Assembly (NCBI GenBank): GCA_045577945.1
Contig: JAZNJG010000142.1
Coordinates: 1,516-65,515 of the forward strand
Source: Bacilli bacterium
Lineage (GTDB): Bacteria; Bacillota_I; Bacilli_A; ML615J-28; CAG-698
DNA length: 64,000 nucleotides
Direction of reading: 5' to 3'
The notes beneath the pieces were generated by a model, which was not told the DNA's origin, searched no databases, and was given only the letters and a program-made list of their open reading frames with translations. A program made the position numbers and the translations under genes. Of this stretch, positions 40,155 through 63,672 are shown one piece after another. How positions within the stretch are numbered: the stretch's first letter is position 1; every line of letters begins with the position of its first letter.

Positions 40155-40523
40155 ATGAAAAGTTTTAAAGATTTTTTAACAGAAGCAAAAGAAAATATTA
40201 GTCATAAACTCGTTGATATGAAAATTATTAATGAGATGGCTACTCTTGCTGCTAAAAGCGATGGAGTTGGATTTATAGCTCGTATATATTCTAATGATCA
40301 CGAGCCCGCTCATATGCATATTTTAGATTATAATAATAAAAAATTAGCTAAAGTTTTATTATCGGGAAATACTCCATCGAAAATTAATGATTTTCAATTC
40401 TTAGATGGTGAATTGGATAGAGATATGTTAAAGAAATTATTAAAATGGGCTAAAGGAAATAATGAAGAAGGTTTTAATAATTGGATATATAGCTTCTCGG
40501 TATGGAAGTCAGAACATAAATAA
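40155..40523 (+). CDS. internal-protein-like small protein with a CTS-like N-terminus 'MKSFKDFLTEAKE'
   Basis: N-terminus resembles the T4 IPI/II/III capsid-targeting sequence 'MKTYQEFIAEA'; true start is the internal Met after RBS 'aaaggaaaataaaatg', not the track start at 40101. Confidence 0.5.
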   Translation: MKSFKDFLTEAKENISHKLVDMKIINEMATLAAKSDGVGFIARIYSNDHEPAHMHILDYNNKKLAKVLLSGNTPSKINDFQFLDGELDRDMLKKLLKWAKGNNEEGFNNWIYSFSVWKSEHK

Positions 40524-40535
40524 AAGGAAAATAAA

Positions 40536-40715
40536 ATGAAAAAGAAGAAACGAAAACGATTTATAAATGGTGATGAAAGAAATTTAAGATTTAATCTCTT
40601 TCATAATGGATTATTTAAACAAAAGATTATACCAAATAAAAAGAAGAAAGTTAAAAAGTTTGACTATAAAAAAGAAATCAGTTCTTATCTAAACATTTAT
40701 TCATTGAGTTTTTAG
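40536..40715 (+). CDS. small highly basic protein (59 aa)
   Basis: 'MKKKKRKRFINGDERNLRF...'; RBS 'aaaaggaaaataaaatg'. Confidence 0.3.
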   Translation: MKKKKRKRFINGDERNLRFNLFHNGLFKQKIIPNKKKKVKKFDYKKEISSYLNIYSLSF

Positions 40716-40776
40716 ACAAGAACTGATTTTTATAATAAATAATTTATATAAATGCATTTATAAAGGAAAACCAAAT

Positions 40777-41136
40777 ATGAAAACATTTAGGGAATTTTTA
40801 TTAGAAGCTAAAATAAATGAAGATACTATGACTCCAGACGAAATTAAAAACTTCATCGATGATCATAAAATTCGAAAAGATATAGGAACTGGAGTATTTA
40901 AATATACTAAAGTAGAGGAATCTGTGTCATTAGATGAAGAAAAAATATCAGACATTAGAACCTTAAAGAAAGGTCAAAAATTTAAATTCAAAAATTCTAA
41001 AGACAATAATACTTATATTATTACTCGTAAATTCAATTCTAATTCATTATCATATGATAATGTAAATACTAAAGAACATTATATATGGGATTGGAGTCAA
41101 GTCCATGAACGTGATGTTATAGTTGAATCAAAATAA
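40777..41136 (+). CDS. internal-protein-like small protein with CTS-like N-terminus 'MKTFREFLLEAKINE'
   Basis: same N-terminal family as 40155, 60427 and 63247. Confidence 0.5.
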   Translation: MKTFREFLLEAKINEDTMTPDEIKNFIDDHKIRKDIGTGVFKYTKVEESVSLDEEKISDIRTLKKGQKFKFKNSKDNNTYIITRKFNSNSLSYDNVNTKEHYIWDWSQVHERDVIVESK

Positions 41137-41463
41137 TTAACAGAAGCTAGCTTAAATCTTGATGATAGTTTTGAATTTGAAAGAACCAAATTTAATATTA
41201 AATAGTGGGATAATGGTGAAATTCAAATTACAAGTTCACATCCATATGATTTAGCTGAATATCATTGAGCTAAAAGTAGAAACGATGGCAAAACATTTGA
41301 TATTATATTAGATAATAAAAGAGTTAAAACTGTTGTTACTAGATCATGGGAAAGAATTGATGATGAAGATTTGGGTGATTATGCAACATTTTCATGGTCT
41401 GAAATCACAAAAGTTCTAAAAGATATGGATAAAAGAGTAAAACCTCATATTGACAGAACTTAA
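41137..41463 (+). pseudogene. stop-interrupted continuation of the 40777 reading frame
   Basis: same frame stays coding-like ('...ITKVLKDMDKRVKPHIDRT') but holds in-frame TAA, TAG and TGA. Confidence 0.3.
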
Positions 41464-41523
41464 TTGTTTAAAATGTTTTCAAAATAAACTCTTATAAATA
41501 ATAATATAAGAGTTTATTTTTTA

Positions 41524-41601
41524 CTCGTAGTTGCATAGTCTGGCTAATGCGCTTGGTTTGGGTCCAAGAGATCGGGAGTTCGAATCTCTCCTACGAGACC
41601 A
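41524..41601 (+). tRNA. tRNA-Pro(TGG)
   Basis: acceptor ctcgtag/ctacgag; anticodon arm 'cttgg uuUGGgu ccaag'. Confidence 0.7.
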
Positions 41602-41607
41602 TTTTAT

Positions 41608-41683
<76 letters not shown>

Positions 41684-41690
41684 TTTTAAA

Positions 41691-41765
41691 GGGAATGTAG
41701 CTCAGAGGAAGAGCGCTACACTGTCACTGTAGAGGTCGAGATATCGTAATTCTTCATTCCCGCCA
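41691..41765 (+). tRNA. tRNA-Asp(GTC)
   Basis: acceptor gggaatg/cattccc; anticodon arm 'ctaca cuGUCac tgtag'; atypical T-loop. Confidence 0.6.
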
Positions 41766-41774
41766 TATATTATT

Positions 41775-41848
41775 AGAGATTTAGTTTAGTGGTAAAACAT
41801 CGGTCTCCAAAACCGAAGTCAGCTGTTCAAATCAGTTAATCTCTGCCA
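41775..41848 (+). tRNA. tRNA-Trp(CCA)
   Basis: acceptor agagatt/aatctct; anticodon arm 'tcggt cuCCAaa accga'. Confidence 0.7.
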
Positions 41849-41855
41849 TTTATAT

Positions 41856-41929
41856 GGAGAGTTGACAGATCGGTTATGTGGAAGACTGCAAATCTTTTTA
41901 GAGGTGTTCGACTCACCTACTCTCCTCCA
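41856..41929 (+). tRNA. tRNA-Cys(GCA)
   Basis: acceptor ggagagt/actctcc; anticodon loop 'cuGCAaa'. Confidence 0.6.
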
Positions 41930-42060
41930 TAAAATATTATTATGTCAGGTGAGATAGAGATGTGTGATAAGGATATCTATATAATAAGTTCAATTATTAT
42001 TGGATTGAGCTGTATTTTATATAGTTTAATTTAAGGAAAGGTGGTAGAGTTATTCTGAAA

Positions 42061-42096
42061 ATATAATCATATAATTTATATGATTATATTTTCATA
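42061..42096. terminator. perfect 16-bp palindromic hairpin (bidirectional terminator)
   Basis: 'aaaatataatcatataa ttt atatgattatatttt'. Confidence 0.5.
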
Positions 42097-42767
42097 TAAT
42101 GTTTGAATTGTTTTATCATTAACATTATATGTTTTATAAATATATTCAAATTCTTCTTGTAAGTCTTCTTTATATAGAATCTTATATTTCATATTAGTAA
42201 TAGAATTTGCTTTAATATCAACTAAATCAGTATAGTAACCTTTAATTTCTATAATAGTATCATTATTAATTATAAAATCTGGATAGTATTTATGGTATTT
42301 TCCATTATAAAAATATTCATAAGATTTATTGCATCTTTTAATGTTAATATTGTGATCTAAGCAGTAAATTAAATAAACAAGTTCATAAGTAGAATCACAA
42401 TAAAAACTCTTATACCAACCGTGTTTAGATCTACCCGATCCTTTATGATAGCCACCTAATTTTCTTTCTTTAGCATATTTTGATAATTTTCTTTTAGTTT
42501 CTTCTGTATGAGGGTGACTTGAAGTTTTATGTAATCCTAGTTTTTGATTTCTTTTAAACGTTTCATGTGCTTTTTTTATCCGCTCATCTGTTTCTTTACT
42601 AAGCCTTTTATTCCAACCAACACTACCTTTTTTCTATGTGCTAGCGGACTTTTTATTTTTTGTACTCTATTTGGATTATATTTACAATGTTTTTGATGAA
42701 CGCTTAAACTACCAGGCTTTTTACATTCTCTACCACAATATTGACAAATAAATTTTTCTTTTGACAT
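42079..42767 (-). pseudogene. frameshifted homing-endonuclease-like gene (Zn-finger N-terminus + NUMOD3-like motif)
   Basis: 'MSKEKFICQYCGRECKKPGSLSVHQKHCKYNPN' continues in another frame after an A/T homopolymer near 42565-42575 as '...HTEETKRKLSKYAKERKLGGYHKGSGRSKHGWYKSFYCDSTYELVYLIYCLDHNINIK...'. Confidence 0.5.
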
Positions 42768-42960
42768 TAAAAATCTCCTTGAAAAAGGAGACAGAAACAA
42801 ATATAAATAATTATAGCAATTTTGATAATGTTTCTATCTCAATTGTTAGAAGATTTGTAAAACGGCTAATTTTACAAATCTTTGTTTTATATAATTATTT
42901 ATAAAAGTTTAGTTTTTAATGTGAAAATATAAATACTTTATATAATATTGTAGAAGTATG

Positions 42961-43011
42961 GTGAAATGATAACTGGCTTCCGTGAGTTCGAATCTCACCC
43001 TTTCCGCCATA
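42961..43011 (+). pseudogene. tRNA 3' fragment (T arm + acceptor 3' strand + CCA) with no 5' half
   Basis: 'gtgagttcgaatctcac cctttccg cca'. Confidence 0.35.
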
Positions 43012-43823
43012 AAATATTTAAAAAAAGCTTGAAAATTATTTTTATTTACATATAATAAAGGTGTAAATAATATTTAATTATATTGTTTACTTCCCCGAAT
43101 ATTAGATACTAGTTTCTAATGCTTTAAAACAACTAGTGTAGGTGCATGACTGAAAATGATTGTTGACTTTGTTAATTTGAATAGGAAATTAATAGTTTGG
43201 CTATCTAGATCAGCTCTAGGGTTTAATGGATTATCCTAGCAACCATTAAGGTATGCGCTTTGCCGATTTGAAAAAGTGCTCTTTTGATTAATTTATAGGT
43301 TAAAATTAATTAAGTTGAAATAGCTTGTAATTATTTCCGTTGGTGAAAGCGCTCATAAGAAAATACGTAAAGTTTTCTTTTTATTTATAAGAACTCTCTT
43401 TCTTATAAATAATATTAGAAGTAGCAATATTTCTAATAGTTCATTTTATTAATAGTGTTAAAGTAGAGCGATTCTCTCACCTATCTATCAAGGTAATGAC
43501 GGCATCCTTTATAGAAAGCCTAATCAGCATTTCTTGGAATTTAGAAGCTAAAATAAATTCGACAATATAAAGGAGAGAATAAGTATTCTCTTAAACTATA
43601 CGATAGATAATAGAATGAACAAACCCTCAAATAAGGTCGTGAATTAATGGTCGGAGAGATAGTGACCAGGATAAAATAAATAAATCTCAAATTCAATGTT
43701 ATTCTAGAAACTAACATTGACGTGCTGAAAGAGGTGAAAATCGTCTATAGAAATATAGACGATTTTTTTGTTGATTATCTAAAAATATATTATACAATAT
43801 AGTTATTAGAAATATAGGAGATT

Positions 43824-44057
43824 ATGAACATGGATGAACAAAATCAACAAATACAATCAGGTGATATTAGATTTGATCTTTACAGTCAAATACATTTTTA
43901 TATTACAAATAGTAGCGATAATTCATATAGTATAATTAACAGTAAAATGTATACATCAAGTGTTAATAAAAATGAATGCTATGAGACGAGATTAATTAAA
44001 CATTTTGATGATAATAAAGAAGGTTTAATTAAATTTGTAGAAAGCTTTTGTGAATAA
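43824..44057 (+). CDS. hypothetical protein (77 aa)
   Basis: ORF with RBS 'taggag'. Confidence 0.4.
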   Translation: MNMDEQNQQIQSGDIRFDLYSQIHFYITNSSDNSYSIINSKMYTSSVNKNECYETRLIKHFDDNKEGLIKFVESFCE

Positions 44058-44058
44058 A

Positions 44059-44094
44059 AAAGGAGGAAATAATTTCCTCCTTTTTTATTATTTT
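44059..44094. terminator. bidirectional terminator; same hairpin sequence as 34080..34108
   Basis: 'aggaggaaataatttcctcc' followed by 'ttttttattattttttat'. Confidence 0.6.
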
Positions 44095-44745
44095 TTATAC
44101 CCATAATAACATCCAAGCTAACCAAGCACCTTGATAGCCACCATATATCCATTCACCCCAATTCCATCCATTTTTACCAAATGGAATTTTCTTTTCAACT
44201 TTACTACCAATCCAGTAGCAAATACCCATACCTAAACCAGATAGCATAAACCATAAACTATTTAAATATAATCCCCATAAGAACGTCAGAATTAAGCCTG
44301 TTAAGCAAGTTCCACAGAAACCAAATATTCTAGGGAATTCATATAACCAATAAGTCTTTGCTTCAACTTGAACCCAGTGACCAAATAATTTATTGAATAT
44401 TTTAGCTGATTTTTCACTAAATGTTATTCTAATACTATATAATAAATCATCAATTAATTCACATTCTTCATCTTTTAGTGGATTAATTTTACCACCACCA
44501 ACTAATGATCCGATATATAATCCCCATCCATATAATTGGTAAGAGGTATAACAATCAATAAAGCCAACTAACCAGTTTTCTAAACCAAATCCATAAAAAA
44601 AGCAGCCATATAGACCGAAAGCAACAGCATACCAAATTTTATTCATTAGAGCTTTATAACCTTTAAATTCCAAACCACCTCTAACACGCCAAAGAAAAGC
44701 TGATAAGATTATAATTAAAATACTATATAAAATATTAATTATCAT
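44095..44745 (-). CDS. polytopic membrane protein, Trp/Gly-rich (possibly PnuC-like transporter)
   Basis: 6-7 hydrophobic segments; no motif verified. Confidence 0.4.
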   Translation of the reverse strand: MIINILYSILIIILSAFLWRVRGGLEFKGYKALMNKIWYAVAFGLYGCFFYGFGLENWLVGFIDCYTSYQLYGWGLYIGSLVGGGKINPLKDEECELIDDLLYSIRITFSEKSAKIFNKLFGHWVQVEAKTYWLYEFPRIFGFCGTCLTGLILTFLWGLYLNSLWFMLSGLGMGICYWIGSKVEKKIPFGKNGWNWGEWIYGGYQGAWLAWMLLWV

Positions 44746-44851
44746 AGAGATCTCCTCATAATAAACTTATACATAATTATTTATTTTTGTTGATTTTAAT
44801 TGAGAATTTATTATATAATTTATCTATAATAAAAATATTGAAAGGAGTGTT

Positions 44852-45172
44852 ATGATGAAAAATAGTATGTGGAAAACAAACAATGAAATACCTACAACAT
44901 ATGTAAATGTTGTTATGAAATTTGATGAGCCGTTCGGAGATCAACTACCAAAAGACGAACAAGATCCGGAATACGAATGTATTGAAATGAGAGATCCAGG
45001 TGATGGAAATGATTTATGTTGGCAATGGTTTGAGCAGTGTTCAACTTGGTGTTATCTAGATGATTTAATTAGATGTTCAAAAGATATATGTAGTATTGCT
45101 GAGAAGTTTTTAGAAAAGAATATTGAATTTGAAGATTGGGTTGGAATGAATTTTGAGTATTTAGAAAAATAA
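44852..45172 (+). CDS. hypothetical acidic protein (106 aa)
   Basis: ORF with RBS 'aaaggag'. Confidence 0.4.
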   Translation: MMKNSMWKTNNEIPTTYVNVVMKFDEPFGDQLPKDEQDPEYECIEMRDPGDGNDLCWQWFEQCSTWCYLDDLIRCSKDICSIAEKFLEKNIEFEDWVGMNFEYLEK

Positions 45173-45181
45173 TATAAAAAG

Positions 45182-45215
45182 AAAAAGACTAGTTTTATTA
45201 CTAGTCTTTTTCTCT
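45182..45215. terminator. bidirectional terminator
   Basis: 12-bp stem 'aaaaagactagt/actagtcttttt' + T-run. Confidence 0.6.
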
Positions 45216-45254
45216 ATCTCATATGTATGTTAACATATTCGATATAGGGAAATT

Positions 45255-45620
45255 TTATATATTTTCTTCTGGATAAGGATAACGAGCTTTGATTTCTTCA
45301 ACTTTTTGCTTACGTTCTTCAATAAGTAGGTTGATTTCAGCAATAATCTCAGTAGTTTGCTCTTCATCACCAAGTCTTTGAATATGACAAGTGATAGGAT
45401 CAACCTCATTTTTGTAGGCTTCTTGTCTTGCTTGTTGCTGCTCTTCTTTTGTCGGTTCAGGTTTCTCAGGAGCATAGCCTTGAACATACCAACGCTCATC
45501 ATAACCTAACTCAACTTCCATTTCAATCATGCCAATAGATTGATAGAAAGAAGAGTTTGTACCAGTTCCAATGGACACTTCTTTAGTTTCGTCATTTATT
45601 ACTTTTGCATATTTTTTCAT
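45255..45620 (-). CDS. tail fibre assembly chaperone (Tfa-like), copy 1
   Basis: 'DPITCHIQRLGDEEQTTEIIAEINLL...YPYPEENI'; paralog of 46764..47156. Confidence 0.6.
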   Translation of the reverse strand: MKKYAKVINDETKEVSIGTGTNSSFYQSIGMIEMEVELGYDERWYVQGYAPEKPEPTKEEQQQARQEAYKNEVDPITCHIQRLGDEEQTTEIIAEINLLIEERKQKVEEIKARYPYPEENI

Positions 45621-45621
45621 A

Positions 45622-46764
45622 TTAATTTACTCCTTTACAAGGATAAAATGTTAATTGTCCATAGTTATTGTCTCGCAATTCTACAACATCTCCTGCTTCA
45701 ACAGGAACGCAACAACTACCATTCCAATAAGTAGCTGTACTGAAGGATAATTGAATGTCATTTATATAAAAAGATGAACCTGTTCCACCTGTTCCACCTG
45801 ATTGATATAAAATCCAACCTTTTGTAAGGCAAGTATAAGTTCCTTGTACTCTATTTAATACTAAAATTCCTGCTGTATAATCAGGCATATTAAGCGCATC
45901 ATTGTAATCAACTACTCTAAATGGAAGTTTAGTAGAAAACGAAGCTATTTTACCGTTATCGCTACTTGATTTAATATTAAATCTACCTATTACTAATTTA
46001 TCAGCACCTAGATAAGTGTTACCATTATACAAATAGTTATCTGATTTAACTAATAGATTTGAATACCAAACAACTGTATTGTCGTTTTTCAAAGCTAAAT
46101 CAAATGTTCCATAAGTTTCGCTACCCCAAGTATGTGTTACAACTTTACTTGTAACAAACTCAATACTCCTCAAACTACCATCAGCATTTCTACCATCTGG
46201 TATCAAGCCTTTAACACCCGGTAAAGCAAATACAGTTGAGCCAATATAACTAAAGCCGTTGAAGACTTGGTCAATAGAAGTAATAGTACCATCTGAAACA
46301 GTTACGATAGCTAAAGATAAACTCCAAACATCACTTTCAAGTACCCCGTTTCTATAAAATGCTACAGTCATTGTAGATGTATTATAAAACATTCCTGAAC
46401 CAGTTGGTGGTGTTGTACCACTTGTGCAAGCTGATGGTGATTGATTTGCCCAAGCTTTATTATCTCTTATATTACAAAACACAACAAAAGTCCCACTACC
46501 ACTATGAGGTGAAACAACCAAATCATTATCTAAAATTATATGCGAACCGTCACCCTTATACAGCTTACTACCTGCCTTTAGTGTTAGCACACCATCATTA
46601 AGCTCTAGTTTAATATCTTGTGGTATTTCTGTTATGCAGTTGGTGACGTTTTTAGAATACTTAGCAAAATTAACAAAGTTAGAAGGAACATTACCGAAAT
46701 CTCTATCAACTTTATCATTGAGAGCTTCAAGCACTACTCCAGCATCATAATTCACTTCGGTCAT
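45622..46764 (-). CDS. tail fibre/receptor-binding protein A
   Basis: 380 aa, Gly/Thr/Ser/Asn-rich beta-type composition; immediately upstream of a Tfa gene; GC-richer than the window. Confidence 0.55.
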   Translation of the reverse strand: MTEVNYDAGVVLEALNDKVDRDFGNVPSNFVNFAKYSKNVTNCITEIPQDIKLELNDGVLTLKAGSKLYKGDGSHIILDNDLVVSPHSGSGTFVVFCNIRDNKAWANQSPSACTSGTTPPTGSGMFYNTSTMTVAFYRNGVLESDVWSLSLAIVTVSDGTITSIDQVFNGFSYIGSTVFALPGVKGLIPDGRNADGSLRSIEFVTSKVVTHTWGSETYGTFDLALKNDNTVVWYSNLLVKSDNYLYNGNTYLGADKLVIGRFNIKSSSDNGKIASFSTKLPFRVVDYNDALNMPDYTAGILVLNRVQGTYTCLTKGWILYQSGGTGGTGSSFYINDIQLSFSTATYWNGSCCVPVEAGDVVELRDNNYGQLTFYPCKGVN

Positions 46765-47156
46765 TATTCATTCTCCTCTGGATATGGATTTTCTTCTTTT
46801 ATTTTAGCAACTATTTCCGCTCTCTTAACTTTAAGAGCATCAATTTCTGCAATAATATCTTCTGTCTGTTCCTCATCTCGTAAAGATTGTATTTGACAAG
46901 TGATCGGGTCTTTTTGGTCTCGATAAAGAGCTTCACGAGTCTGACGAACTTCTTCATAGGTTAGAAGTGGTTTCTCAACAACAGGAGCTGGTTTAGGCTC
47001 TGGAATTTTATTAATCTGAAAATAACGCTTGCCGTTTTCACGACGTTCAATAATTTCAGTCAATATTGCTTTGTTAGCATTGCACCAAGCTTTAGCTTCG
47101 TTGAATTTCTCGTCAAAAGTTCCGTCAATATATTCAATTATCTGTCCGTATTCCAT
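46764..47156 (-). CDS. tail fibre assembly chaperone (Tfa-like), copy 2
   Basis: 'DPITCQIQSLRDEEQTEDIIAEIDAL...NPYPEENE'. Confidence 0.6.
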   Translation of the reverse strand: MEYGQIIEYIDGTFDEKFNEAKAWCNANKAILTEIIERRENGKRYFQINKIPEPKPAPVVEKPLLTYEEVRQTREALYRDQKDPITCQIQSLRDEEQTEDIIAEIDALKVKRAEIVAKIKEENPYPEENE

Positions 47157-47169
47157 TTAGTATACCCCC

Positions 47170-48363
47170 CTATTTAATAGCATCCATTTTAATTTCAGCA
47201 ATAACAGCACACGCTCCCAACCAAGGATTGTATGCGGTTTTAGTTATGTTCAATTGATGGTATTTATAGTATTTCTGTGAATTAACTACAATTTCCCAAG
47301 TTGCACCTTGAGCAGTTACATCATTTGTCCAATCGCAAATATGTTCCCAAGTGGCGTTATCATTTGAACCCAAAACAGTTCCAGCAGTAACGCCTTTATG
47401 TCCAGAAGAATTCGAAGTTGTAATTGTAAGTTTTTTTAACTTCAAAGCTTTTGGATTATACATTATCAACCACTGTGGCATACCACCACTTGAGTGCCAA
47501 ATTGTACTAGTGTTATTGTCAAAAGCATTCCAATAAGCACCACTATATACACTCTTACCAGTAACAGCAAAGCTGTCACCGCCTAAAGTTCCATTAGCGG
47601 TTAAAACTGGTTGTTTGAATATGTTGTCATAAACCAATGTACTTCCGTTATATATTTTCGATATTTCCGTTGAACCAAAATATATTCTACTCATCTCTTT
47701 AGGTGGAACTGTAACAATATAATCATAATCATCGGCAGTACTTTCAATTCCTTTAGTACCTCTCCACCATTCTTCACCATTTATTTTGATGTAGGATTTT
47801 CTAAGGTCGATTGAACCACTAGTAAAAGCAGCCGCATAGTATTTACCGCCCGCTTGAAAGTCAGCACCAATAGCTATGTTATATCCAGAAGTAATAGGAG
47901 TGGTAACACTTGATGAAGCTTCTGGTGTGTAGATAACTCCATCAGTAGACAAACTTAGCTCGTACCCTGTTTCAGGATTATAAGAAGCTTTTGCATAATA
48001 GTCTTTGTTTACTTCAAGAGTAGTAGTTCCAGTAATTCCAAATAATAGGGTACTTGTATTGTTGGCATAAGCACCAAAATATAAATTATTTTTACCAGTA
48101 ACAACAACGTCAACAGGTTGATAAGCAACGCTTGAGGAGTTAAATAAACTCCTGCTAACACCTAAAGCACTCAAATTGAACTTAGCAACTATATCCCAAC
48201 TGTTTGAGTTAGGGCTAAAGTTCTCAGGCAACACAAGCCAACTCGTTGAACTGAAACCACTAGCAATACCATTCTCAATAGTTGGAGAGCCTACAACTGT
48301 TACATTAGGCTCTGTTCCGTACTTGTAATATTTCTTCAACACTGGATTCAAATACACAGGCAT
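47170..48363 (-). CDS. tail fibre/receptor-binding protein B
   Basis: 397 aa, Ser/Thr/Gly/Asn-rich; upstream of Tfa copy 2. Confidence 0.55.
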   Translation of the reverse strand: MPVYLNPVLKKYYKYGTEPNVTVVGSPTIENGIASGFSSTSWLVLPENFSPNSNSWDIVAKFNLSALGVSRSLFNSSSVAYQPVDVVVTGKNNLYFGAYANNTSTLLFGITGTTTLEVNKDYYAKASYNPETGYELSLSTDGVIYTPEASSSVTTPITSGYNIAIGADFQAGGKYYAAAFTSGSIDLRKSYIKINGEEWWRGTKGIESTADDYDYIVTVPPKEMSRIYFGSTEISKIYNGSTLVYDNIFKQPVLTANGTLGGDSFAVTGKSVYSGAYWNAFDNNTSTIWHSSGGMPQWLIMYNPKALKLKKLTITTSNSSGHKGVTAGTVLGSNDNATWEHICDWTNDVTAQGATWEIVVNSQKYYKYHQLNITKTAYNPWLGACAVIAEIKMDAIK

Positions 48364-48366
48364 GGC

Positions 48367-49410: not shown

Positions 49411-49446
49411 TATTAAATTACCTCCTTAATTTTTAATAGAGAGGAA

Positions 49447-49456
49447 TTACCTAGCG
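49447..49456 (-). repeat. homopolymeric (C)10/(G)10 tract in the 5' leader of the tail fibre gene
   Basis: the only mononucleotide G/C run of 8 or more in this AT-rich window; 37-46 nt upstream of the ATG at 49410, downstream of the late motif. Confidence 0.8.
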
Positions 49457-49537
49457 CCCCCCCCCCAGTCTAACATTGAAAAAATATGTTTATTGAACAT
49501 TTTAATCCCTTTCTATTAAAACTTATCTTTATACAAT

Positions 49538-49545
49538 TATTTATA
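49538..49545 (-). promoter_or_regulatory. T4-type late promoter motif TATAAATA (minus strand)
   Basis: + strand 'caattatttatata'; motif recurs upstream of other minus-strand structural genes. Confidence 0.45.
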
Positions 49546-49549
49546 TAAA

Positions 49550-49585
49550 ATAAAAGTGTCTATTTTTGAAATAGACACTTTTATT
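49550..49585 (-). terminator. terminator after the repeat-containing fibre gene
   Basis: 13-bp stem 'aaaagtgtctattt/aaatagacactttt'. Confidence 0.55.
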
Positions 49586-54293: not shown

Positions 54294-54332
54294 AAAATAG
54301 CGAGATTTATTTCTCGCTATTTTTTTTTAATA
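54294..54332. terminator. bidirectional terminator
   Basis: 'aaatagcgaga tttattt ctcgctattt' + T9. Confidence 0.6.
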
Positions 54333-55505: not shown

Positions 55506-55516
55506 TTGTATATACC

Positions 55517-55711
55517 TTAGATAAGTTTCTCAATTATTTTTTCTAAATCTTTAATTTTATTTTCTAATTCTTCAATTTTTGCTGCTTGATCTTTTTTTGC
55601 TTTTTTCTTTTGACGATAAGCTGATAAAGCTTCAACATTAGAATTTAGAATAGCGTTAGAATCTAAATCCTTAACATAATCTTTTTCATCAGTGATTTTA
55701 ACTTCTCTCAT
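55517..55711 (-). CDS. small coiled-coil protein (64 aa)
   Basis: ORF with late motif at 55731..55738. Confidence 0.35.
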   Translation of the reverse strand: MREVKITDEKDYVKDLDSNAILNSNVEALSAYRQKKKAKKDQAAKIEELENKIKDLEKIIEKLI

Positions 55712-55730
55712 ATAGAAAACCTCTTTATAA

Positions 55731-55738
55731 TTATTTAT
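55731..55738 (-). promoter_or_regulatory. late promoter motif TATAAATA (minus strand)
   Basis: + strand 'aattatttata', ~20 nt upstream of the ATG at 55711. Confidence 0.4.
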
Positions 55739-55762
55739 AGAGAGGGAGTTACCTCCCTCAAA

Positions 55763-58700
55763 CTATACAAGTGTTAATACCTTAAGATTTTGTATAAATG
55801 GTATATCATATGTATTTGCAGATTTAAATACAATTTTAATAACAAATGTCTTAAATCCTGTAAATCCATCATATGTGATAACTCCAGAATCAAATGAATA
55901 TTCTTTAATATCATTAACATTAACAGAATAATCATTATTATCAGCAGACATTTTTACAAAAGGTCTAAGATTGAATATACTTTCATCATCTTTATTTTGA
56001 ACTCTATAGTATACTTCAATATCTGTATTCATTGGTCTGTATGCTTCGAAATAAACCTTGATTGAATCTGCATCAAAACCTTCTTTCAACGTTACCTTTT
56101 TAGTGATATATTTTGCAAGAGCATTACCACCAACAGGATCTGTTTCATATAATGAATCATTATTAATAATATTTTTAATGAGTAATATATTGGATTTCTC
56201 TAAATCAATACAAGATGCACAATCTATATCATTAATGAATACTGCTTTAATAAGAAATGTATAATTTGTATTTACTAGAGCTTGAGTTGGTAAAGAAATA
56301 TCTTTATCATTTTCAAATTCAATCCAGTTATTATCAAATGTTGTTCCATCATATGTTTTTTTGTAATAAAAGCGAATATTATTAGTACCTTGAATAATAT
56401 TATGTAGATGAGCATAAAATACGTCATAATTAAATAACTCATTTGATTTAGCTCTCAATACTAATTCACTACCTACATTAAATTGTAGCTTATTAACATT
56501 AAATTTTAATACTTTATTATATTCAACTAACCATTCATTTTTAGAGTTATTAGTAAATACATCACCTGTTCCTATTGCTTTTGATACAATATTATTTGCT
56601 GATGAATTTATAATTGGTTGTCCGACAGTAGCTCTATATAACTCATATTTAGAGCTATTTGTATGAACAACAATTGCATATTCACCTTCAATTAAGAATA
56701 ATGGTCTCTTAAATATAAATCTTGTAGATAAACTGCCGTTATTTGAAATAATAACAGATGATGCTCTCATTGTTACTTGTGAGAATGGAATCAATTTACT
56801 TTTATGTGGTTTACCGTCTTGAACAGGTCTAATATCAATTGTAACTGGTAAACTATTATCTTTTGTTTTAAAGAACAAATCAACACTATCAATAAATATT
56901 CCATTTGGTTTATTTGACACTTGGAATGTTTGTGCAATCATTTTACGCGTCATTGTTTGATTTGATAAAGTGTAATCTTCTACTAATTCTTGGTGTTGAA
57001 TTAGTGGAGGTAATGTAGAAACTACATTATCTGTTCTATTGTTTAGTAAACCTAATGCATAGAAATTAATTTCAGCCATTGTAGAAGCTTTTTCAAGCTT
57101 ATTTTGTGATTGGTTAATAAATCTCAATAAATGCATACCAGAACGAATAAATCCGCTTGGCAAACTAATAGTATTAGAAATTTCACCATAATTATCAGAA
57201 ATTCGACCACCACCAACGTATTTATTGATATTTACATCATCAAGAAATACATCAAACATTGTGTTTGGCTTAACAGCTTTAACATTAAAGTTTAATTTAA
57301 CAGAATCAATATATGGAATAACATCAACATTGACTTTTCTATTATTAACAATCTTTTGAATTGATGTGCTTGACTCAAGATTTAATATAGAATCTTTATC
57401 TTTATTGATTTCATTACCATACCATAAATTTTTCCAATAGCCATAGTTAATATCGTATGGTGATTTTGTTTTGATTTTCCAACCAACATTAACATCATTT
57501 TCATTGATAACAACATCTGGATTTTTATTAATATTAATAAAGTTAGTTCCATTTGGAGTAATATCAATATTGCCGATCCAATTTATAAGATTAAATGGAT
57601 TAATTTGAACTGTTTCTGTAATTGTATCTTGTTTAATATAAGAAACAGATGTTGAAGTTGGGGTTATTAATCCATTATTATTAGCAATACCTGTTGAAGA
57701 ACTATCAATTTCTAAATTTAAGGATTGAGTATCAATAGGTGCTCTTAAATATCTATGCATGCTATCGATAGAACAATTATATGAAATATTAGTTAGATCT
57801 CCAACATTATGTCCAATAAATGAATCAACTAAAATACCAGATTTATACATATCATCACCAGATTCATCTAAAACTGTTTGATTTTTAGCGTTCTCTTCAA
57901 GTAATGATAATGATGCATAATATTCCAAGTTAGATATACGGTTATCTAATTTTCCAATGTCTCGCATTGTATATCTTTTATTATCAATGTATTTAATAGT
58001 AATATCATTAACATCAAATGTATAAGCAGGGATTGTTAAGATATATAATGACATTGAATCATCACGATCATTTGGGGTTGTTGGAACTAAATCTGATACA
58101 CCCTGTATATAATCAAATTGACGATCTTCTCTTAATATAATTTTATCAATGCGACCTAAATAGAATTCATAATTAGCGTTAATATTATCATCTGGTCTTG
58201 GTAAATCAATACCACCAGTAGGAACTATAACACTATTTGATCCATCTGCAACACGAGGTCTAAAATCGATTACATCACGTAGATTATAAGTTGTTCCATT
58301 ATTTGTAGTATATGTAGGAATTTGATCATAATCAATAATAGATGTATATGAATCAACTGAGAAATAACCTGAACCAGAATGTGAAAAGTATTCAAATTCA
58401 ACTGTTAGAGTATCATCAATTGAACCATTATTTAATGTAATAGAACCGTGATCATATAAATTATCTCTCTGTCCATTATCTAATGTAAATTGATCTGTGA
58501 TATCAGTATCTGAAGAATCTTTAACAGAAACTAGTTTATAAATATCTGAATATCCTAAATCTAATCTATTACCTGTTAACTTACCTGTTATTGTAGCAGT
58601 ATTAAGTGCTTTAGTTCTTTCAGCTTTTGAGTTTAGATTAACACTAGCTAAAATAGTAACTGATGCTTGGAAAGACGTATCATTTATATTAAATGTTGCG

Positions 58701-60325
58701 GTTTGGTTACCACCAGATAATGTAATACTACGACCTGAAGTAGTCATATTAATTATTTGACCAGAAACAATTCCTGTATCGCCAGCGTTTACAACATTAG
58801 TAGCAACTAAAATATATCTTCTCTTAAGAGTATCAGATAATGCACCTGAAGCACCAAAGAATGAATTATTTCCACCAATATTAATAGAAGCTACACCATT
58901 TGCAAAGCTTGCTTCAAAAGATCTTTGTGAAACATATTCTGTACTGATTGTGCTGTCTGGTTTTAATGTTTTTACTGATGTATGTGGTGTTGCAAATAAA
59001 AGTGTATTATAACTAGTACCAAGTAACTTTTCACCAGAAACGGCAGCAATAGTTGCGCTAGCGCCAGATGTGTTTGTAATATTTGTTACACTATTAAAAG
59101 ATTGGTTACTATTCATTTGAATATTGAATAAGTAAAATCTAAAACTACCATCACTTTCTTGTGTAATGAATCTTAAATACGCTGTACCAATTTTAGTTGA
59201 TGATTTTAAAAGATCAACCTGCTCTAAATTAACTGGTTTAAATAATCCTGTCATAGATGTTACTTTACAGTAGTTGCCATACTGTGCATTAATATCAAAA
59301 TTTGTGACTTGCTCAACATCACGAGCTTTTGGTAATGATAGCTTTGATGTTGAAATCGTCTCAAATTCATAACCGCGAACATATGCCTTACCTGCACCAA
59401 GTAAGACATTAAAATTATCTCCATTATTTTCAATTTTAATATCAAACGGTTCAACAGTGAAGTTGCCACTTTCATCAAATGTTCTTCTGGCAAAATTTTT
59501 CTCTAATTCAGAATACTGTGTATACTTATTCTCGAAAGTAATTTCACCTTCTTTAACTTCCATTAATTCAATAAAATTAATAGAATTTGCACTATCAATT
59601 GATTTCTTTTCTAAATATAATGTATATTGTAAACGATCTGCACCATGTGCACCATAATTAGGTGAGCCATTTGCAGGATCAAGCAAAGAATTGTCTGTTT
59701 CATAAGTTACTATATTATCATATACAGTGATACCAATCTTATATGAAGGTTTGTTTGAATATTTTTCAAGAATAATTTGTTGCTGACCAACTCTTAAAAA
59801 TAATCCATTATAAAAATAATAACCTTCGCTGATACCTACCATAGATGCAAAGCCAATTGAGCTTTCTTCATTTAAGATTGTTGCACTATATACAATATCT
59901 TCAGCAATAATATCTTCCCCATAATTAAAATCAATACCATTTAACGGTTTAACATAAATTGTATTTTCATCTGTTCCTTCAGCTTCAATATAATGAACTA
60001 CTCTTGCTAAAGCACCAGATTGTTGACCTTTAATTATTTGACCCATAAAATTAGCAACATTAATATTTGTTTCTTTAAATGTGCTTGCTAATAATATATA
60101 GGTAACTTCAGTATCTAAACTAACTTCACCACCTAATACTCTTGAGCCATTTTGAAATAAGTGTGAACCAAATTGATTAATTTGATTTTGTATGATTGTT
60201 TGCATTTGCGTCAGTTCACGAGCTTGAACTGCAACAGAAGGTTTAAAAAGAATACGATAAAAATCTTTCTCTTCTTTATAATCATCGTAATATGGATTTG
60301 TATTTGTTACTAAAAGATCAGCCAT
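55763..60325 (-). CDS. large virion structural protein (1520 aa; fibre/baseplate-type)
   Basis: very long Asn/Ser/Thr-rich ORF with late motif at 60365..60372 upstream. Confidence 0.55.
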   Translation of the reverse strand: MADLLVTNTNPYYDDYKEEKDFYRILFKPSVAVQARELTQMQTIIQNQINQFGSHLFQNGSRVLGGEVSLDTEVTYILLASTFKETNINVANFMGQIIKGQQSGALARVVHYIEAEGTDENTIYVKPLNGIDFNYGEDIIAEDIVYSATILNEESSIGFASMVGISEGYYFYNGLFLRVGQQQIILEKYSNKPSYKIGITVYDNIVTYETDNSLLDPANGSPNYGAHGADRLQYTLYLEKKSIDSANSINFIELMEVKEGEITFENKYTQYSELEKNFARRTFDESGNFTVEPFDIKIENNGDNFNVLLGAGKAYVRGYEFETISTSKLSLPKARDVEQVTNFDINAQYGNYCKVTSMTGLFKPVNLEQVDLLKSSTKIGTAYLRFITQESDGSFRFYLFNIQMNSNQSFNSVTNITNTSGASATIAAVSGEKLLGTSYNTLLFATPHTSVKTLKPDSTISTEYVSQRSFEASFANGVASINIGGNNSFFGASGALSDTLKRRYILVATNVVNAGDTGIVSGQIINMTTSGRSITLSGGNQTATFNINDTSFQASVTILASVNLNSKAERTKALNTATITGKLTGNRLDLGYSDIYKLVSVKDSSDTDITDQFTLDNGQRDNLYDHGSITLNNGSIDDTLTVEFEYFSHSGSGYFSVDSYTSIIDYDQIPTYTTNNGTTYNLRDVIDFRPRVADGSNSVIVPTGGIDLPRPDDNINANYEFYLGRIDKIILREDRQFDYIQGVSDLVPTTPNDRDDSMSLYILTIPAYTFDVNDITIKYIDNKRYTMRDIGKLDNRISNLEYYASLSLLEENAKNQTVLDESGDDMYKSGILVDSFIGHNVGDLTNISYNCSIDSMHRYLRAPIDTQSLNLEIDSSSTGIANNNGLITPTSTSVSYIKQDTITETVQINPFNLINWIGNIDITPNGTNFININKNPDVVINENDVNVGWKIKTKSPYDINYGYWKNLWYGNEINKDKDSILNLESSTSIQKIVNNRKVNVDVIPYIDSVKLNFNVKAVKPNTMFDVFLDDVNINKYVGGGRISDNYGEISNTISLPSGFIRSGMHLLRFINQSQNKLEKASTMAEINFYALGLLNNRTDNVVSTLPPLIQHQELVEDYTLSNQTMTRKMIAQTFQVSNKPNGIFIDSVDLFFKTKDNSLPVTIDIRPVQDGKPHKSKLIPFSQVTMRASSVIISNNGSLSTRFIFKRPLFLIEGEYAIVVHTNSSKYELYRATVGQPIINSSANNIVSKAIGTGDVFTNNSKNEWLVEYNKVLKFNVNKLQFNVGSELVLRAKSNELFNYDVFYAHLHNIIQGTNNIRFYYKKTYDGTTFDNNWIEFENDKDISLPTQALVNTNYTFLIKAVFINDIDCASCIDLEKSNILLIKNIINNDSLYETDPVGGNALAKYITKKVTLKEGFDADSIKVYFEAYRPMNTDIEVYYRVQNKDDESIFNLRPFVKMSADNNDYSVNVNDIKEYSFDSGVITYDGFTGFKTFVIKIVFKSANTYDIPFIQNLKVLTLV

Positions 60326-60364
60326 TATTTTCTCTCATATACAGACATTCTATTATTATACAAT

Positions 60365-60372
60365 TATTTATA
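60365..60372 (-). promoter_or_regulatory. late promoter motif TATAAATA (minus strand)
   Basis: + strand 'caattatttata', ~40 nt upstream of the ATG at 60325. Confidence 0.4.
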
Positions 60373-60426
60373 TTGAAATTATAGATATAAATACTTAAAG
60401 AAAAGTAATTTATGAAAGTTATAATA

Positions 60427-60930
60427 ATGAAAAGCTTTAGGGAATTTTTAAGCACTAACTACTTCAAACATGGTGCATTTATAGAATTAAAATTTACAAA
60501 AGAAACTTTAGAAAATTTACAAAAATATTTTAATAAAAATAATATTCAAAACCAACTCAATCTAGACGAAATTCACACTACATTACTATACTCTAGAAAA
60601 GGTATTGTTGATTATATTCCATCAAATGTATTGAAAGGTGAAATTCTAACACCGATTAAATTACATATATGGAAAACTCAAGAAGATACTAATTGTTTAG
60701 TTTGTGAATTACATAACAATAATGTTATTAGACATCACAATAATTTAATTAAAAATCATAACGCAAGCCATGATTATCCTGAATATATTCCTCATGTAAC
60801 ATTGAGCTATAATTGTGGTAATATTGATTTAGATCAATTAGAATTACCTGATTTTAATTTTATAGTTGAAAATGAATCATTAAGTTCACTTGATGAAGAT
60901 TGGCTAAAAAATAATATAAAGAAAAGATAA
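60427..60930 (+). CDS. 2H phosphoesterase (LigT/cyclic-phosphodiesterase-like) with an internal-protein-like N-terminus
   Basis: two H-x-T/S-x motifs, 'EIHTTLLYS' and 'IPHVTLSYN'; N-terminus 'MKSFREFL'; track start at 60412 is likely too early. Confidence 0.55.
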   Translation: MKSFREFLSTNYFKHGAFIELKFTKETLENLQKYFNKNNIQNQLNLDEIHTTLLYSRKGIVDYIPSNVLKGEILTPIKLHIWKTQEDTNCLVCELHNNNVIRHHNNLIKNHNASHDYPEYIPHVTLSYNCGNIDLDQLELPDFNFIVENESLSSLDEDWLKNNIKKR

Positions 60931-61000
60931 TAAGTATTGATTATATAGCTTACCATATTTAATATACAAAATGTAAAATCTATATAGAAAGGAATTAAAA

Positions 61001-62122
61001 GTGACACAAATAATCGATACAACTGAATTAGATTTTTCTGATGTTTTATTTAAACCAAAAAGAACAACATTAAATTCAAGAAGTGAAGCAGATATTATAA
61101 GAGAATATAAATTCAAGTACTATCCAAATACTATTAAATCTTGTGGTATAATGGCTGCTAATATGGCAACTACAGGAACATTTGAAATGAATGACGTTCT
61201 TCAAAAATATAAAGCAATTACTTGCTTACATAAGCATATTGATGTAAAAGATTTAGAAGAATATATGGTAAAAAATTATACTAAAAAAGAAAGTGAATAT
61301 AATTCATTTACATTTATTTCAATAGGTTTGAAAGATGATAAAGAAAAATTATTTGCTTTGATGGATAGAGGATCTCCATTTGATAAAATTTGTATCGATG
61401 TTGCAAATGGTTATATGCCAAAATTATTAGAATTTGTTAAAGAAGTTAGAGGAAAATACCCAAGAGCATTGATTATGGTTGGTAATGTTGTAACTGGAGA
61501 TATGACACAAGATCTTATCTTAAGTGGTGCAGATATTGTTAAGGTTGGTATTGGACCTGGTTCAGTTTGTACAACAAGAAAACTAACTGGTGTTGGAAGA
61601 CCTCAACTTTCAGCAATTCTTGAGTGTGCAGATGCAGCACATGGTGTTGGTGGTATGATTTGCGCTGATGGTGGTTGTACTTGTGCAGGTGATGTCGCAA
61701 AAGCATTTGGTGCTGGTGCAGATTTTGTAATGCTTGGTGGTATGCTCGCAGGAACAGATGAAGCAGCCGGAGATTTAATTGAAAAAGTTATCCAAACAAA
61801 TGAAATAATTTATGACATGTCAGATAATCGTGAAAGATTAGGTAAGTTAGAAGTTGTTAAAAAATTCAAACAATTTTACGGTATGTCATCTAAATTGGCA
61901 CAAGAAAAGCATTTTGGTGGAATGCAAAGATATAGAGCATCAGAAGGTAAAGTTGTTGAGATTCCATATAAAGGTTCAGTTATTAGTGTAATTGAAGAAA
62001 TACAAGGTGGAATCCGCTCAACAATGTCTTATATCGGTGCAAGAAGATTGAAAGATATTCCTAAATGCACAACATTTTATAAAGTTAACCGCCAGTTAAA
62101 TGAAGTCTTTGGTAAAAGTTAA
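61001..62122 (+). CDS. GMP reductase / IMP dehydrogenase family protein
   Basis: 'ICIDVANGY', '[18 protein letters not shown]', '[10 protein letters not shown]'; no CBS insert seen. Confidence 0.65.
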
Positions 62123-63213
62123 TGTATTTAAATGATACACAAATTAAAATTGAAGCAGGTAAATGTTTAAGGTGCAAAAATCCACAATGCGAAATGAATT
62201 GCCCTTTACATTTATCTGCTAAAACTTTTATTCAGTTATATAAGGAAACAAAATATAAAGAATTGATAGAATATATCTATTCAATCAATCCATTTGCTGA
62301 AGTATGTGGTTTTGTTTGTCCAAATAAATTTTGTATGCTAAACTGTACTAGAAATAAAATTGATAATTCAGTTAATATTAAATCATTACAATCAGTATTT
62401 ACTCATCAATATAAACACTTATTTAATATTCAATACACTAATAATCATAAAAATGTTGCAATTATTGGTGGTGGTGTTGCAGGCTTAACAGCTGCCTGGT
62501 TACTATCACTAAAAGGTTATAATATTGATTTATTTGAAAAGGATAGTAAGATTGGTGGTGAATTAAATTTAATACCTCAATTTCGTTTACCAAAATCTGT
62601 ACTAGAAAGTGATTTGCAGTTATTTAAGGATAATCCAAATATTAATATCATTTATAATACAAATGTTACTGATTATAATTCACTGTTAGAAAAATATGAA
62701 TTTGTTATTGTTGCAACTGGCAAGCAAATTGAAAATAAATTAAATATTGAAGGTGAGGAGTATTTAACAGGTTATAAAAGATTTTTATCTAACAATAACA
62801 ATAATTATAAAAATGTTGCAATTATTGGTGGTGGAAATGTAGCTGTTGATTGTGCATTGATTGCAAAAAATAGTAATAATAGTGTAACAATATTTGTAAG
62901 AAGAAATTTTTATGATATGAAGATTGATGAAGAACATTTACAAAAATTGTTTAGTAAGAAAATTAATATAGTTAGTAATTTTATACCAACAAATGTCTAT
63001 AAAGATGAAAAATTACATTTAGAAGGAAAATTGTTTGATAGAAGTTATATTGGCTTAAATAACTATGATGTAATAGTCAAAGCAATTGGTAGTATACAAG
63101 AAGATATAAAGATTAATAATGATAGTATAATTTATATACCTACTTCAAAGTATGTTGTAGATACTATTGTAAATACAATAAATACAATAAATAATTATAC
63201 ATATATATGTTAG
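62122..63213 (+). CDS. Fe-S + FAD/NAD(P)-binding oxidoreductase (GltD/PreT-like)
   Basis: N-terminal Cys clusters 'CLRCKNPQCEMNCP', 'CGFVCPNKFCMLNC'; two Rossmann motifs 'VAIIGGGVAGLTAA' and 'VAIIGGGNVAVD'. Confidence 0.55.
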   Translation: MYLNDTQIKIEAGKCLRCKNPQCEMNCPLHLSAKTFIQLYKETKYKELIEYIYSINPFAEVCGFVCPNKFCMLNCTRNKIDNSVNIKSLQSVFTHQYKHLFNIQYTNNHKNVAIIGGGVAGLTAAWLLSLKGYNIDLFEKDSKIGGELNLIPQFRLPKSVLESDLQLFKDNPNINIIYNTNVTDYNSLLEKYEFVIVATGKQIENKLNIEGEEYLTGYKRFLSNNNNNYKNVAIIGGGNVAVDCALIAKNSNNSVTIFVRRNFYDMKIDEEHLQKLFSKKINIVSNFIPTNVYKDEKLHLEGKLFDRSYIGLNNYDVIVKAIGSIQEDIKINNDSIIYIPTSKYVVDTIVNTINTINNYTYIC

Positions 63214-63246
63214 ATTGTTACTAGTAATTACAAAAAGGATATTAAA

Positions 63247-63672
63247 ATGAAATCATTTAAACAATTTTTAAGAGAGAGTGAAGAGGTTAAAGATCAGGTT
63301 TCTGAGAACGAAGAAGTAAAAGAACTTGATGAAGCTAAAATGGATTGGGGTAATGTTAGGAATGAAATAACAAACACCAATTTATTAGTTGATATTATTT
63401 ATACATATGGTCAACCTGAAATTCGTGTAGGAAGTAATAGTTATGCTATTAAAGATATGATGAATCCTGAATCTATTGAAGCTATTAGAAAAAAATACGG
63501 CTCAACAAAATTAACAGATGAACAAGAAGAAGAACTCAAACAAGATGAGATTGCTTTTTTGAAAAACCTTAAAAAGATGGAATCAGATATTCAAAAAGAT
63601 ATGATTAAAATTACTAAAAAGTATGAAGATGATATCAAAAAAGTTCTTAAGAAATATAACGCTGAAATTTAA
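63247..63672 (+). CDS. internal-protein-like acidic protein with CTS-like N-terminus 'MKSFKQFLRESEE'
   Basis: N-terminal family shared with 40155, 40777 and 60427. Confidence 0.45.
   Translation: MKSFKQFLRESEEVKDQVSENEEVKELDEAKMDWGNVRNEITNTNLLVDIIYTYGQPEIRVGSNSYAIKDMMNPESIEAIRKKYGSTKLTDEQEEELKQDEIAFLKNLKKMESDIQKDMIKITKKYEDDIKKVLKKYNAEI

Follow-up and report, generated by a model that had tools for sequence, protein, structure and literature searches.

Proteins that are injected together with phage DNA act before phage gene expression and represent the first counter-move against host immunity; to our knowledge, only a handful of them are known, among them IPI* and Alt of phage T4 and Dar of phage P1. 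The capsid-targeting sequence (CTS) found at the N-terminus of T4 internal proteins (Mullaney & Black 1996; reviewed in PMC9026906 and PMC3012670) also serves as a tool for bringing foreign proteins into capsids. Its first 10 residues are enough for packaging, and the analysis of mutants attributed targeting mainly to residues 4 and 7 and processing to residues 8 and 10, with Asp10 blocking processing yet permitting targeting (PMC9026906). The prohead protease gp21 cuts after Glu in I/L-x-E (PMC12991175; PMC5694885), propeptides with more than one cleavage site have been described from T4-related heads (PMC5694885), and T-even phages possess polymorphic internal-protein loci (PMC3012670; PMC9026906). 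Here we analysed a stretch of 64,000 nt filed under a Bacilli bacterium (GenBank assembly GCA_045577945.1, contig JAZNJG010000142.1, positions 1,516 to 65,515 of the forward strand; hereafter the window), in which four open reading frames (ORFs) of a T4-type phage begin with what is probably a CTS of this type.

The motif M-K-[S/T]-F-x-[D/E/Q]-F-L heads exactly four ORFs, all on the plus strand, which are named here by their first position (40155, 40777, 60427 and 63247; Table 1). In strict and loose six-frame regular-expression scans these ORF starts were its sole occurrences in the window, with only about 2e-5 such starts expected by chance from the amino-acid frequencies of the window ORFs; the ORF listing and the six-frame scan agree with each other and with the coordinates and starts given in the original prediction, an earlier reading of the same DNA. 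Over the first 10 residues the leaders follow the pattern M-K-S/T-F-x-D/E/Q-F-L-x-E, E10 being present in three of the four. F4 and F7, the targeting determinants of the CTS, occur in all leaders, and L8 together with E10, the processing determinants, occur in ORFs 40155, 40777 and 63247, followed there by A or S. In the T4 genome (NC_000866), IPII and IPIII start with MKTYQEFIAE/A and IPI with MKTFKEFTSTTTPVSTITE/A (MKTFKEFTST), where the slash marks the putative cleavage position here and below. At each of its ten positions the leader of ORF 60427 either equals the IPI leader or carries a conservative replacement, and it is the closest of the four. The resemblance to IPI, IPII and IPIII, as originally predicted, was thus borne out, but the string MKTYQEFIAEA that had been ascribed to all three belongs to IPII and IPIII only; the LxE named as the cleavage site is present in three of the four proteins, whereas ORF 60427 lacks the Glu.

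Behind the leader the proteins are unrelated. Without the first 12 residues the mature parts show no pairwise similarity (best BLASTP E 0.17) and the cargoes span two different Pfam families and two unknowns, and the proposed "family of small proteins" is better described as unrelated cargoes sharing one tag. The first eight residues and the similar ribosome-binding regions common to all four genes could also be expected of fast-diverging paralogues, arisen by recent duplications, in which the N-terminus alone is still recognisable. Paralogy was nevertheless rejected and appears to us hardly credible, given the complete loss of similarity past residue 12 and the assignment of two of the proteins to different widespread Pfam families, the other members of which mostly do not carry the leader.

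The window has a GC content of 27.4% and belongs to a T4-type myovirus, uncultured and low in GC, with a genome of about 178 kb. PHROG scans identified the T4-type genes for the gp44 clamp loader, Dda helicase, rIIA and rIIB, further the gp3 tail sheath stabiliser and the gp2 DNA end protector, and also anaerobic NrdD, a GroEL homologue, QueE and QueD; ten to twelve tRNA genes are present. Homologues of ORFs 63247 and 40155 were found on two metagenomic contigs at 26% GC (ENA ERZ27302292 k141_1675235, 179,572 nt, and ERZ28614198 scaffold_75, 178,459 nt), both of which share with the window the DUF4815 structural protein (80% identity), gp2 and Acb1, while one of them encodes Gp23 (proteins 75-80% identical to those of the window). 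These shared genes argue for an origin of the window from a T4-type myovirus of such size. Megablast of positions 40000-64000 against GenBank phages returned a tRNA-Met match only and no close cultured relative, an exact 47-nt search of the GTDB genomes gave 0 matches, and tblastn identities to T4-type phages reached only 30-36%. A search with a neighbouring 389-aa protein recovered distant jumbo-phage loci only, which showed neither T4 matches nor leaders.

Comparison with the relatives supports the description of the four genes as hypervariable: different leader-tagged genes occupy these loci, and ORF 40777 is an orphan. In the relative locus L123, the Acb1 gene (MKTFKEFLSHNYY, again without E10) adjoins a homologue of ORF 63247, and an 87-aa ORF starting with MKTFKDFLNE/S is present as well. 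In another, L127, three further leaders occur within 7 kb around the DUF4160 gene, namely MKTFNQFLTE/A (139 aa), MKSFKEFLNE/E (119 aa) and MESFKDFLLNE (109 aa). The leader-tagged cargoes of the relatives that differ from those of the window start at L123:1586, L127:4997, L127:9628 and L127:11239; PHROG and Pfam scans placed the leader cargoes of the relatives in no family. Between L127:4997 and ORF 40155 of the window, 80 nt of upstream-plus-leader DNA are 77% identical and the cargoes differ, a pattern that a recombining leader cassette would produce. In T4 itself, ipI lies between the tRNA block and 57B/acb1, and its leader matches those described here. The suggested clustering near the tRNA block applies to two of the four window genes and does not apply to the other two.

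The leader is not confined to this lineage. A DNA pattern encoding residues 1-8 only, ATGAAAWSNTTTARRSANTTTTTA, was scanned against IMG/VR contigs and matched at least 120 of them versus 4 for the same codons scrambled, which makes the scrambled order at least 30-fold rarer. Among the matches listed, to which all following counts refer, nearly all lie at ORF starts; residue 10, left unspecified by the pattern, is Glu in 73 of 88 distinct N-termini (83%) and Asp in 7, and residue 11 is Ser or Ala in 52 (59%), which has the appearance of a gp21-type protease site. The 108 complete proteins, compared without the leader, fall into at least 45 unrelated cargo clusters, which include basic proteins, adenylate kinase, cytidylyltransferases, a HAD phosphatase and lysozyme-like proteins. 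Typing of the loci (up to 14 kb each) by tblastn with T4 structural proteins and window proteins revealed T4-type structural genes (gp4, gp13-gp24, gp5, gp6, gp25 and others) in 73 of 120 (61%); hence the leader appears to be a feature of T4-type phages, with its genes often placed in late structural clusters. For instance, the marine loci L040, L098 and L104 encode inside the gp19-gp24 head and tail cluster a leader-tagged 140-aa protein (MKTFKEFLKE/AIPFG...) with a weak lipoprotein/RlpA-like PHROG match. One marine leader-bearing cargo family is homologous from residue 1 to gp282 of phage PA5oct, a virion structural protein detected by ESI-MS/MS that starts with MKSFRDYY. Full-text literature searches for the motif strings retrieved no description of this environmental leader.

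Conservation of a short 5' end may also reflect a nucleic-acid or expression element, such as a translation initiation signal, an enhancer or a RegA-type repressor site. The leader genes are A/T-rich at their start, share ATG AAA and have similar AAGGA Shine-Dalgarno sequences, and upstream-plus-leader DNA is kept between relatives with different cargoes, as expected under this explanation. The codons, however, vary where the amino acids are kept or conservatively replaced: codon 3 is AGT, ACA, AGC or TCA (Ser/Thr, with Ser encoded by AGT as well as TCA), codon 5 is AAA or AGG (Lys versus Arg), and codon 6 is GAT, GAA or CAA (Asp/Glu/Gln). The leader is therefore conserved at the protein level. 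Together with the environmental preference for E10 and for S or A at position 11, a protein-level signature of a protease site, and with the rarity of the scrambled codons, this led us to reject an element acting in the mRNA, which we consider very improbable.

The environmental loci bear equally on the destination of the tag. Many leader genes have tail, neck and terminase genes as neighbours, a GroEL homologue is encoded in the window, and two of the window's leader genes flank the tail-fibre module, so that sorting to the tail or baseplate, to the membrane or to a phage GroEL can be envisaged. Such a destination seems slightly less probable still, because the leader matches residue by residue the head-specific T4 CTS, including the cleavage site of a head protease that acts inside proheads, and contains no hydrophobic segment.

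The capsid-targeting reading gains from the architecture of the proteins themselves. ORF 63247 has ten homologues, all within the same phage group, in which a nearly invariant leader is followed by an acidic linker of 0 to 19 residues and then by the invariant (L/I)-D-E/A-K-M-D-W-G-N-V. In the shortest member, MKSFKQYLTE/AKMDWGNV, the E10 of the leader and the Glu of this second site are the same residue. In the AlphaFold model (pLDDT 71) the leader helix is of low confidence, residues 15-31 have pLDDT < 50 and the protein is folded from about residue 32. The domain boundaries of the ORF 63247 family and of Acb1 fit a propeptide. ORF 63247 belongs to no Pfam or PHROG family. A 15-bp inverted repeat behind its stop looks like a terminator hairpin; the terminator scan did not score it, as the stem is AT-rich.

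ORF 40155 was identified as a DUF4160 protein (PF13711; 41 bits versus a cut-off of 23, residues 39-110 on profile positions 1-64 of 65). The alignment of its homologues revealed a second conserved (L/I)xE at residues 25-27, which is kept despite a 10-residue deletion. AlphaFold (pLDDT 78) predicted a leader helix at residues 4-18 with low confidence and the domain with good confidence. The structure prediction that had been proposed for these proteins thus yielded a disordered linker and a folded domain in ORF 63247 but, for ORFs 40155 and 63247, no fold match, Foldseek against the PDB returning nothing with E < 0.1. The sequence TTGATT-17-TATAAT upstream of ORF 40155 carries no weight, as sigma-70-like matches occur at chance level. 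Directly after the DUF4160 gene, at 40536-40715 (+), lies a very basic 59-aa ORF (MKKKKRKRFING...) without leader, which is probably a real gene and is kept in a relative (L127:10381-10563).

ORF 40777 was compared with 5.8 billion proteins, among which its sole match was itself, and it likewise has no Pfam or PHROG family. Its codons 8-13 (LEAKIN) recur as an exact 18-nt copy at 43541, where 0.08 matches with up to two mismatches would be expected; the local-alignment score of 36 exceeds those of all 476 background windows (maximum 30). The "decayed N-terminal fragment" noted earlier near 43545 is therefore real as a repeat but doubtful as a gene remnant, since the flanks align weakly and only with gaps and no ATG is present; on this thin evidence it could have been left over from a leader cassette. 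The surrounding ORF-free stretch extends over about 900 nt (42900-43820) and contains at about 42955-43011 an element resembling the 3' half of a tRNA and ending in CCA, which is 97% conserved in L127, was not called by ARAGORN and gave a weak tRNA/tmRNA-like Rfam match. Rfam searches of 41900-43900 produced sub-threshold matches only, and the rest of the ORF-free stretch matched no family.

The fourth leader heads a homologue of the anti-CBASS 2H phosphodiesterase Acb1. ORF 60427 matches PF23474 with 103.9 bits (cut-off 27) over profile positions 2-143 of 144, and PDB entry 7T26 with E 1.7e-17, and its catalytic H50-T-T52 and H123-V-T125 align with HTT and HIT of 7T26. The description of the leader-tagged proteins as candidate anti-defence factors is thus strengthened, one cargo being a member of a bona fide anti-defence family, and the product would be expected to hydrolyse CBASS cyclic-nucleotide signals. 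The crystallised 7T26 protein starts at the residue aligned with residue 16, which places the leader outside the 2H fold. Since F4, F7 and L8 are present, residue 10 is Thr and a site scan found no [LI]xE in the first 45 residues, the protein is predicted to be packaged but unprocessed, with the leader retained. Another in-frame ATG, at 60412, precedes the leader by five codons (15 nt), but it is probably not used: a relative with a 75%-identical Acb1 has an in-frame TAA after the corresponding ATG, and its gene begins with the leader, preceded by a GAAAGG ribosome-binding site. We therefore take 60427 as the probable start. The T4 late-promoter consensus TATAAATA found upstream recurs in L123 at about 35 nt before the Acb1 gene, a divergent copy at 60365-60372 (-) precedes the gene of the 1520-aa DUF4815 structural protein, and further copies lie 20-40 nt upstream of several minus-strand structural genes. 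As a late promoter of Acb1 it is only suggestive.

Acb1 also calls for an explanation of its own, by which the extension is a family trait serving folding, oligomerisation or regulation, its likeness to the CTS arose by descent with an ipI-type leader or by convergence, and the enzyme is cytoplasmic and not packaged. A HMMER search retrieved 1180 Acb1 relatives. Of the best 150 representatives 144 are stand-alone proteins, and these were surveyed for their N-termini: 126 have some extension before the conserved GTY strand and 18 have none. N-terminal extensions are widespread in the family, and part of the CTS resemblance could be such a trait; T4 57B, which directly adjoins ipI, starts with MMEFKDFSTG (F4, F7) and RB49 57B with MTPFRESVKG, indicating that an F-x-x-F N-terminus is old in the family. 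Moreover, the window copy has no cleavage site, and full-text literature searches combining Acb1 with virion terms gave no report of a packaged Acb1. On the other side, crystallised Acb1 is active without the extension and the 18 representatives do without it, the same eight residues head three unrelated proteins of this phage, F4 and F7 are kept and a non-processable Asp10 CTS still targets in T4 (PMC9026906), and a late-promoter-like element is conserved upstream. We regard the family-trait explanation of the Acb1 extension as rather unlikely, and a CTS function of this leader as about an even chance. Among the 144 representatives, 16 have an aromatic CTS-like leader (e.g., MKSFKEFIME/Q, MIKSFKEFLME/E, MLTFAQFLLE/A and MITFKQFLSE/N) and 36 a start of the type M-K-L-x-E-[LI], which recalls the T4 gp24 propeptide MAKINELLRE/S. 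Acb1 may thus commonly be delivered in the head.

The wide occurrence of extensions in the Acb1 family weighs against capsid targeting, and so do several further observations. The mature window proteins have pI values of 5.6-8.2, in contrast to the mostly basic T4 internal proteins, and the second LxE of ORF 40155 lies in a predicted beta-strand (AlphaFold) and may be inaccessible. The count of TATAAATA in the window is at chance (30 observed versus 30.3 expected by shuffling), as are the counts from sigma-70-like promoter and terminator consensus scans, which stay at shuffle level in this AT-rich DNA. The prohead protease gp21 and the scaffold gp22 are not encoded in the window, and the relative locus L123 ends at the 3' end of gp23; as all T4-related phages have them among their core genes (PMC9026906), both can be expected in the lineage. 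Taken together with the T4-type affiliation of the phage, the conserved determinants at positions 4/7 and 8/10, the unrelated mature parts and the polymorphic loci, our data nevertheless favour the reading of the leaders as CTS, and for the three cleavable proteins (40155, 40777 and 63247) such a function is likely.

Core binding, cleavage, presence in the virion, injection and anti-defence function are what we infer for these proteins, in the following order. Late in infection the leader would bind the scaffolding core of the assembling prohead, and the protein would be enclosed in the head. A gp21-type protease would cut the products of ORFs 40155, 40777 and 63247 after L-x-E10, a second (L/I)xE cut at the end of the linker would probably release the mature domain, and the Acb1 homologue would be packaged with its leader still attached. 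The cargo would be expelled with the DNA into the next host and be active there ahead of all phage gene expression. Acb1 would break down the cyclic-nucleotide signals of CBASS, and the other three proteins would act on targets of their own, plausibly defence systems. A more tentative proposal, which we hold to be less likely than not, is that Acb1 reaches the host by way of the capsid in this lineage, and perhaps also in many other T4-type phages including T4, and that the leader broadly marks an injected repertoire. If true, the incoming genome would be pre-armed against CBASS and other cyclic-nucleotide signalling, and MKxFKxFLxE would mark a large unexplored injected repertoire, with kinases, nucleotidyltransferases and lysozymes among its at least 45 families. 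A 10-residue tag recognisable in sequence would allow injected cargo to be listed from genomes and metagenomes; in the window it points to four candidates, of which Acb1 suggests a delivery route so far undescribed. Natural leader variants, including a non-cleavable one, also widen the toolbox for capsid loading.

Table 1. Leader-tagged ORFs and associated features of the window (a slash marks the putative cleavage position)
Feature	Positions	Strand	Sequence	Length	Remarks
Leader-tagged DUF4160 protein	40155-40523	+	start MKSFKDFLTEAKE	122 aa	leader MKSFKDFLTE/A, residues 1-10; INE/M at 25-27; domain 39-110
Leader-tagged orphan	40777-41136	+	start MKTFREFLLEAKINE	119 aa	leader MKTFREFLLE/A; second site INE/D, residues 13-15
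Leader-tagged Acb1 homologue (anti-CBASS 2H phosphodiesterase)	60427-60930	+	start MKSFREFLSTNY	167 aa	leader MKSFREFLST
Leader-tagged protein of a small unknown family	63247-63672	+	start MKSFKQFLRESEE	141 aa	leader MKSFKQFLRE/S; acidic linker; LDE/A at 27-29; domain AKMDWGNV...
Part of tRNA block (Gln, Pro, Met, Trp, Cys)	39993-41929	+			encloses ORFs 40155 and 40777
Exact copy of ORF 40777 codons 8-13 (LEAKIN)	43541-43558	+	TTAGAAGCTAAAATAAAT	18 nt	in ORF-free stretch
T4 late-promoter consensus	60386-60393	+	TATAAATA		34 nt upstream of Acb1 start
Inverted repeat	63692-63728	+	AAAAAGCTTTCTTAA ... TTAAGAAAGCTTTTT	15 bp	20 nt past ORF 63247 stop; read from sequence

Several neighbouring genes deserve mention. 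Between the Acb1 gene and ORF 63247, at 61001-63213 (+), lie genes for an IMPDH/GMP-reductase-like protein and a dihydropyrimidine-dehydrogenase-like Fe-S/FAD oxidoreductase; as the Acb1 gene directly adjoins the ORF 63247 homologue in L123, this pair looks like an inserted auxiliary metabolic cassette. Directly upstream of the tRNA block a reverse-transcriptase ORF of 556 aa is located at 36449-38119 (+; phrog_1423, E 5e-99), and two tRNA-like genes missed by ARAGORN were called by Rfam at 41691-41762 (52.1 bits) and 38586-38644 (29.4 bits), both on the plus strand. TnpB/IS605-type transposase-like genes were found in the window at 8120-9322 (-; phrog_506) and in the relatives at L123:15570-15809 and L127:14097-15278 (Cas12f1-like_TNB). 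A second shared N-terminus, MKIRNGWVGNSSSSSF[IV], heads the plus-strand ORFs 16880-17284, 20508-21032, 22213-23046 and 31293-31745 and also L123:325-768 (-); the four window ORFs (134-277 aa) are otherwise different, and none of the five has a Pfam or PHROG family. This N-terminus has the look of a further portable module, or else the ORFs form a paralogue family that diverges fast. Finally, the ORF adjoining the gp44 clamp loader gene starts with MNMINELFDISE and the NAD-dependent DNA ligase with MDLMNDLFGIDE (1871-2362 and 9473-11491, both +); their common [MI]N[ED]LF resembles a sliding-clamp-binding motif.

Among described systems, the T4 internal proteins IPI, IPII and IPIII are the closest. 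In both cases a 10-residue N-terminal tag, M-K-T/S-aromatic-x-E/Q-F-I/L-x-E, in which residues 4 and 7 are aromatic and I/L8 and E10 precede a small residue, is carried by unrelated small proteins, the genes of which lie near the tRNA block and 57B (in the window, two of four at the tRNA block), and IPI* of T4 is an injected anti-restriction protein. In contrast to T4, the window phage is distant, has 27% GC and no DNA similarity to any GenBank phage, and its candidate cargoes are new (DUF4160, Acb1 and two unknowns) and not basic, with one leader being non-cleavable. A conserved promoter-plus-leader cassette is followed by different ORFs in different relatives, much as at the polymorphic internal-protein loci described for T-even phages (Repoila et al. 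1994, as cited in PMC3012670 and PMC9026906), and this fits an arms-race repertoire. The T-even loci belong to close relatives of T4 infecting enterobacteria, whereas the present ones belong to an uncultured low-GC lineage, and the pattern extends to T4-type contigs of marine and freshwater origin, in which at least 45 cargo families occur. The window locus is thus best explained as a low-GC counterpart of the already known CTS-led polymorphic internal proteins.

What would be new is the Acb1 cargo behind a putatively targeting-competent, non-cleavable leader and the large and diverse environmental repertoire of candidate cargoes. The window copy shares with T4 Acb1 (57B) and with 7T26/7T27 the Pfam family and both HxT motifs, with 31-34% identity to phage 57B proteins, but has a full IPI-like leader that is six residues longer than the T4 N-terminus, and Acb1 has been described as a cytoplasmic enzyme while this copy carries a CTS-type leader. 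Capsid-borne, injected enzymes that degrade nucleotide signals have a parallel in the MuF- or portal-fused "polyvalent" proteins, including 2H phosphoesterases (Iyer et al. 2022, PMC9503650), and in T4 Alt; for the fusions delivery was deduced from a large structural domain, and here from a 10-residue tag that is either removable or retained. T4 gp24 (MAKINELLRE/S), gp22 (MLKEQLIAE/A) and Alt (MELITELFDE) similarly have short, helix-prone N-termini whose final (L/I)xE is the cutting site of gp21 (PMC5694885), yet these are structural, scaffold or enzyme proteins with leaders of their own, whereas the leaders of the window are of the aromatic internal-protein type.

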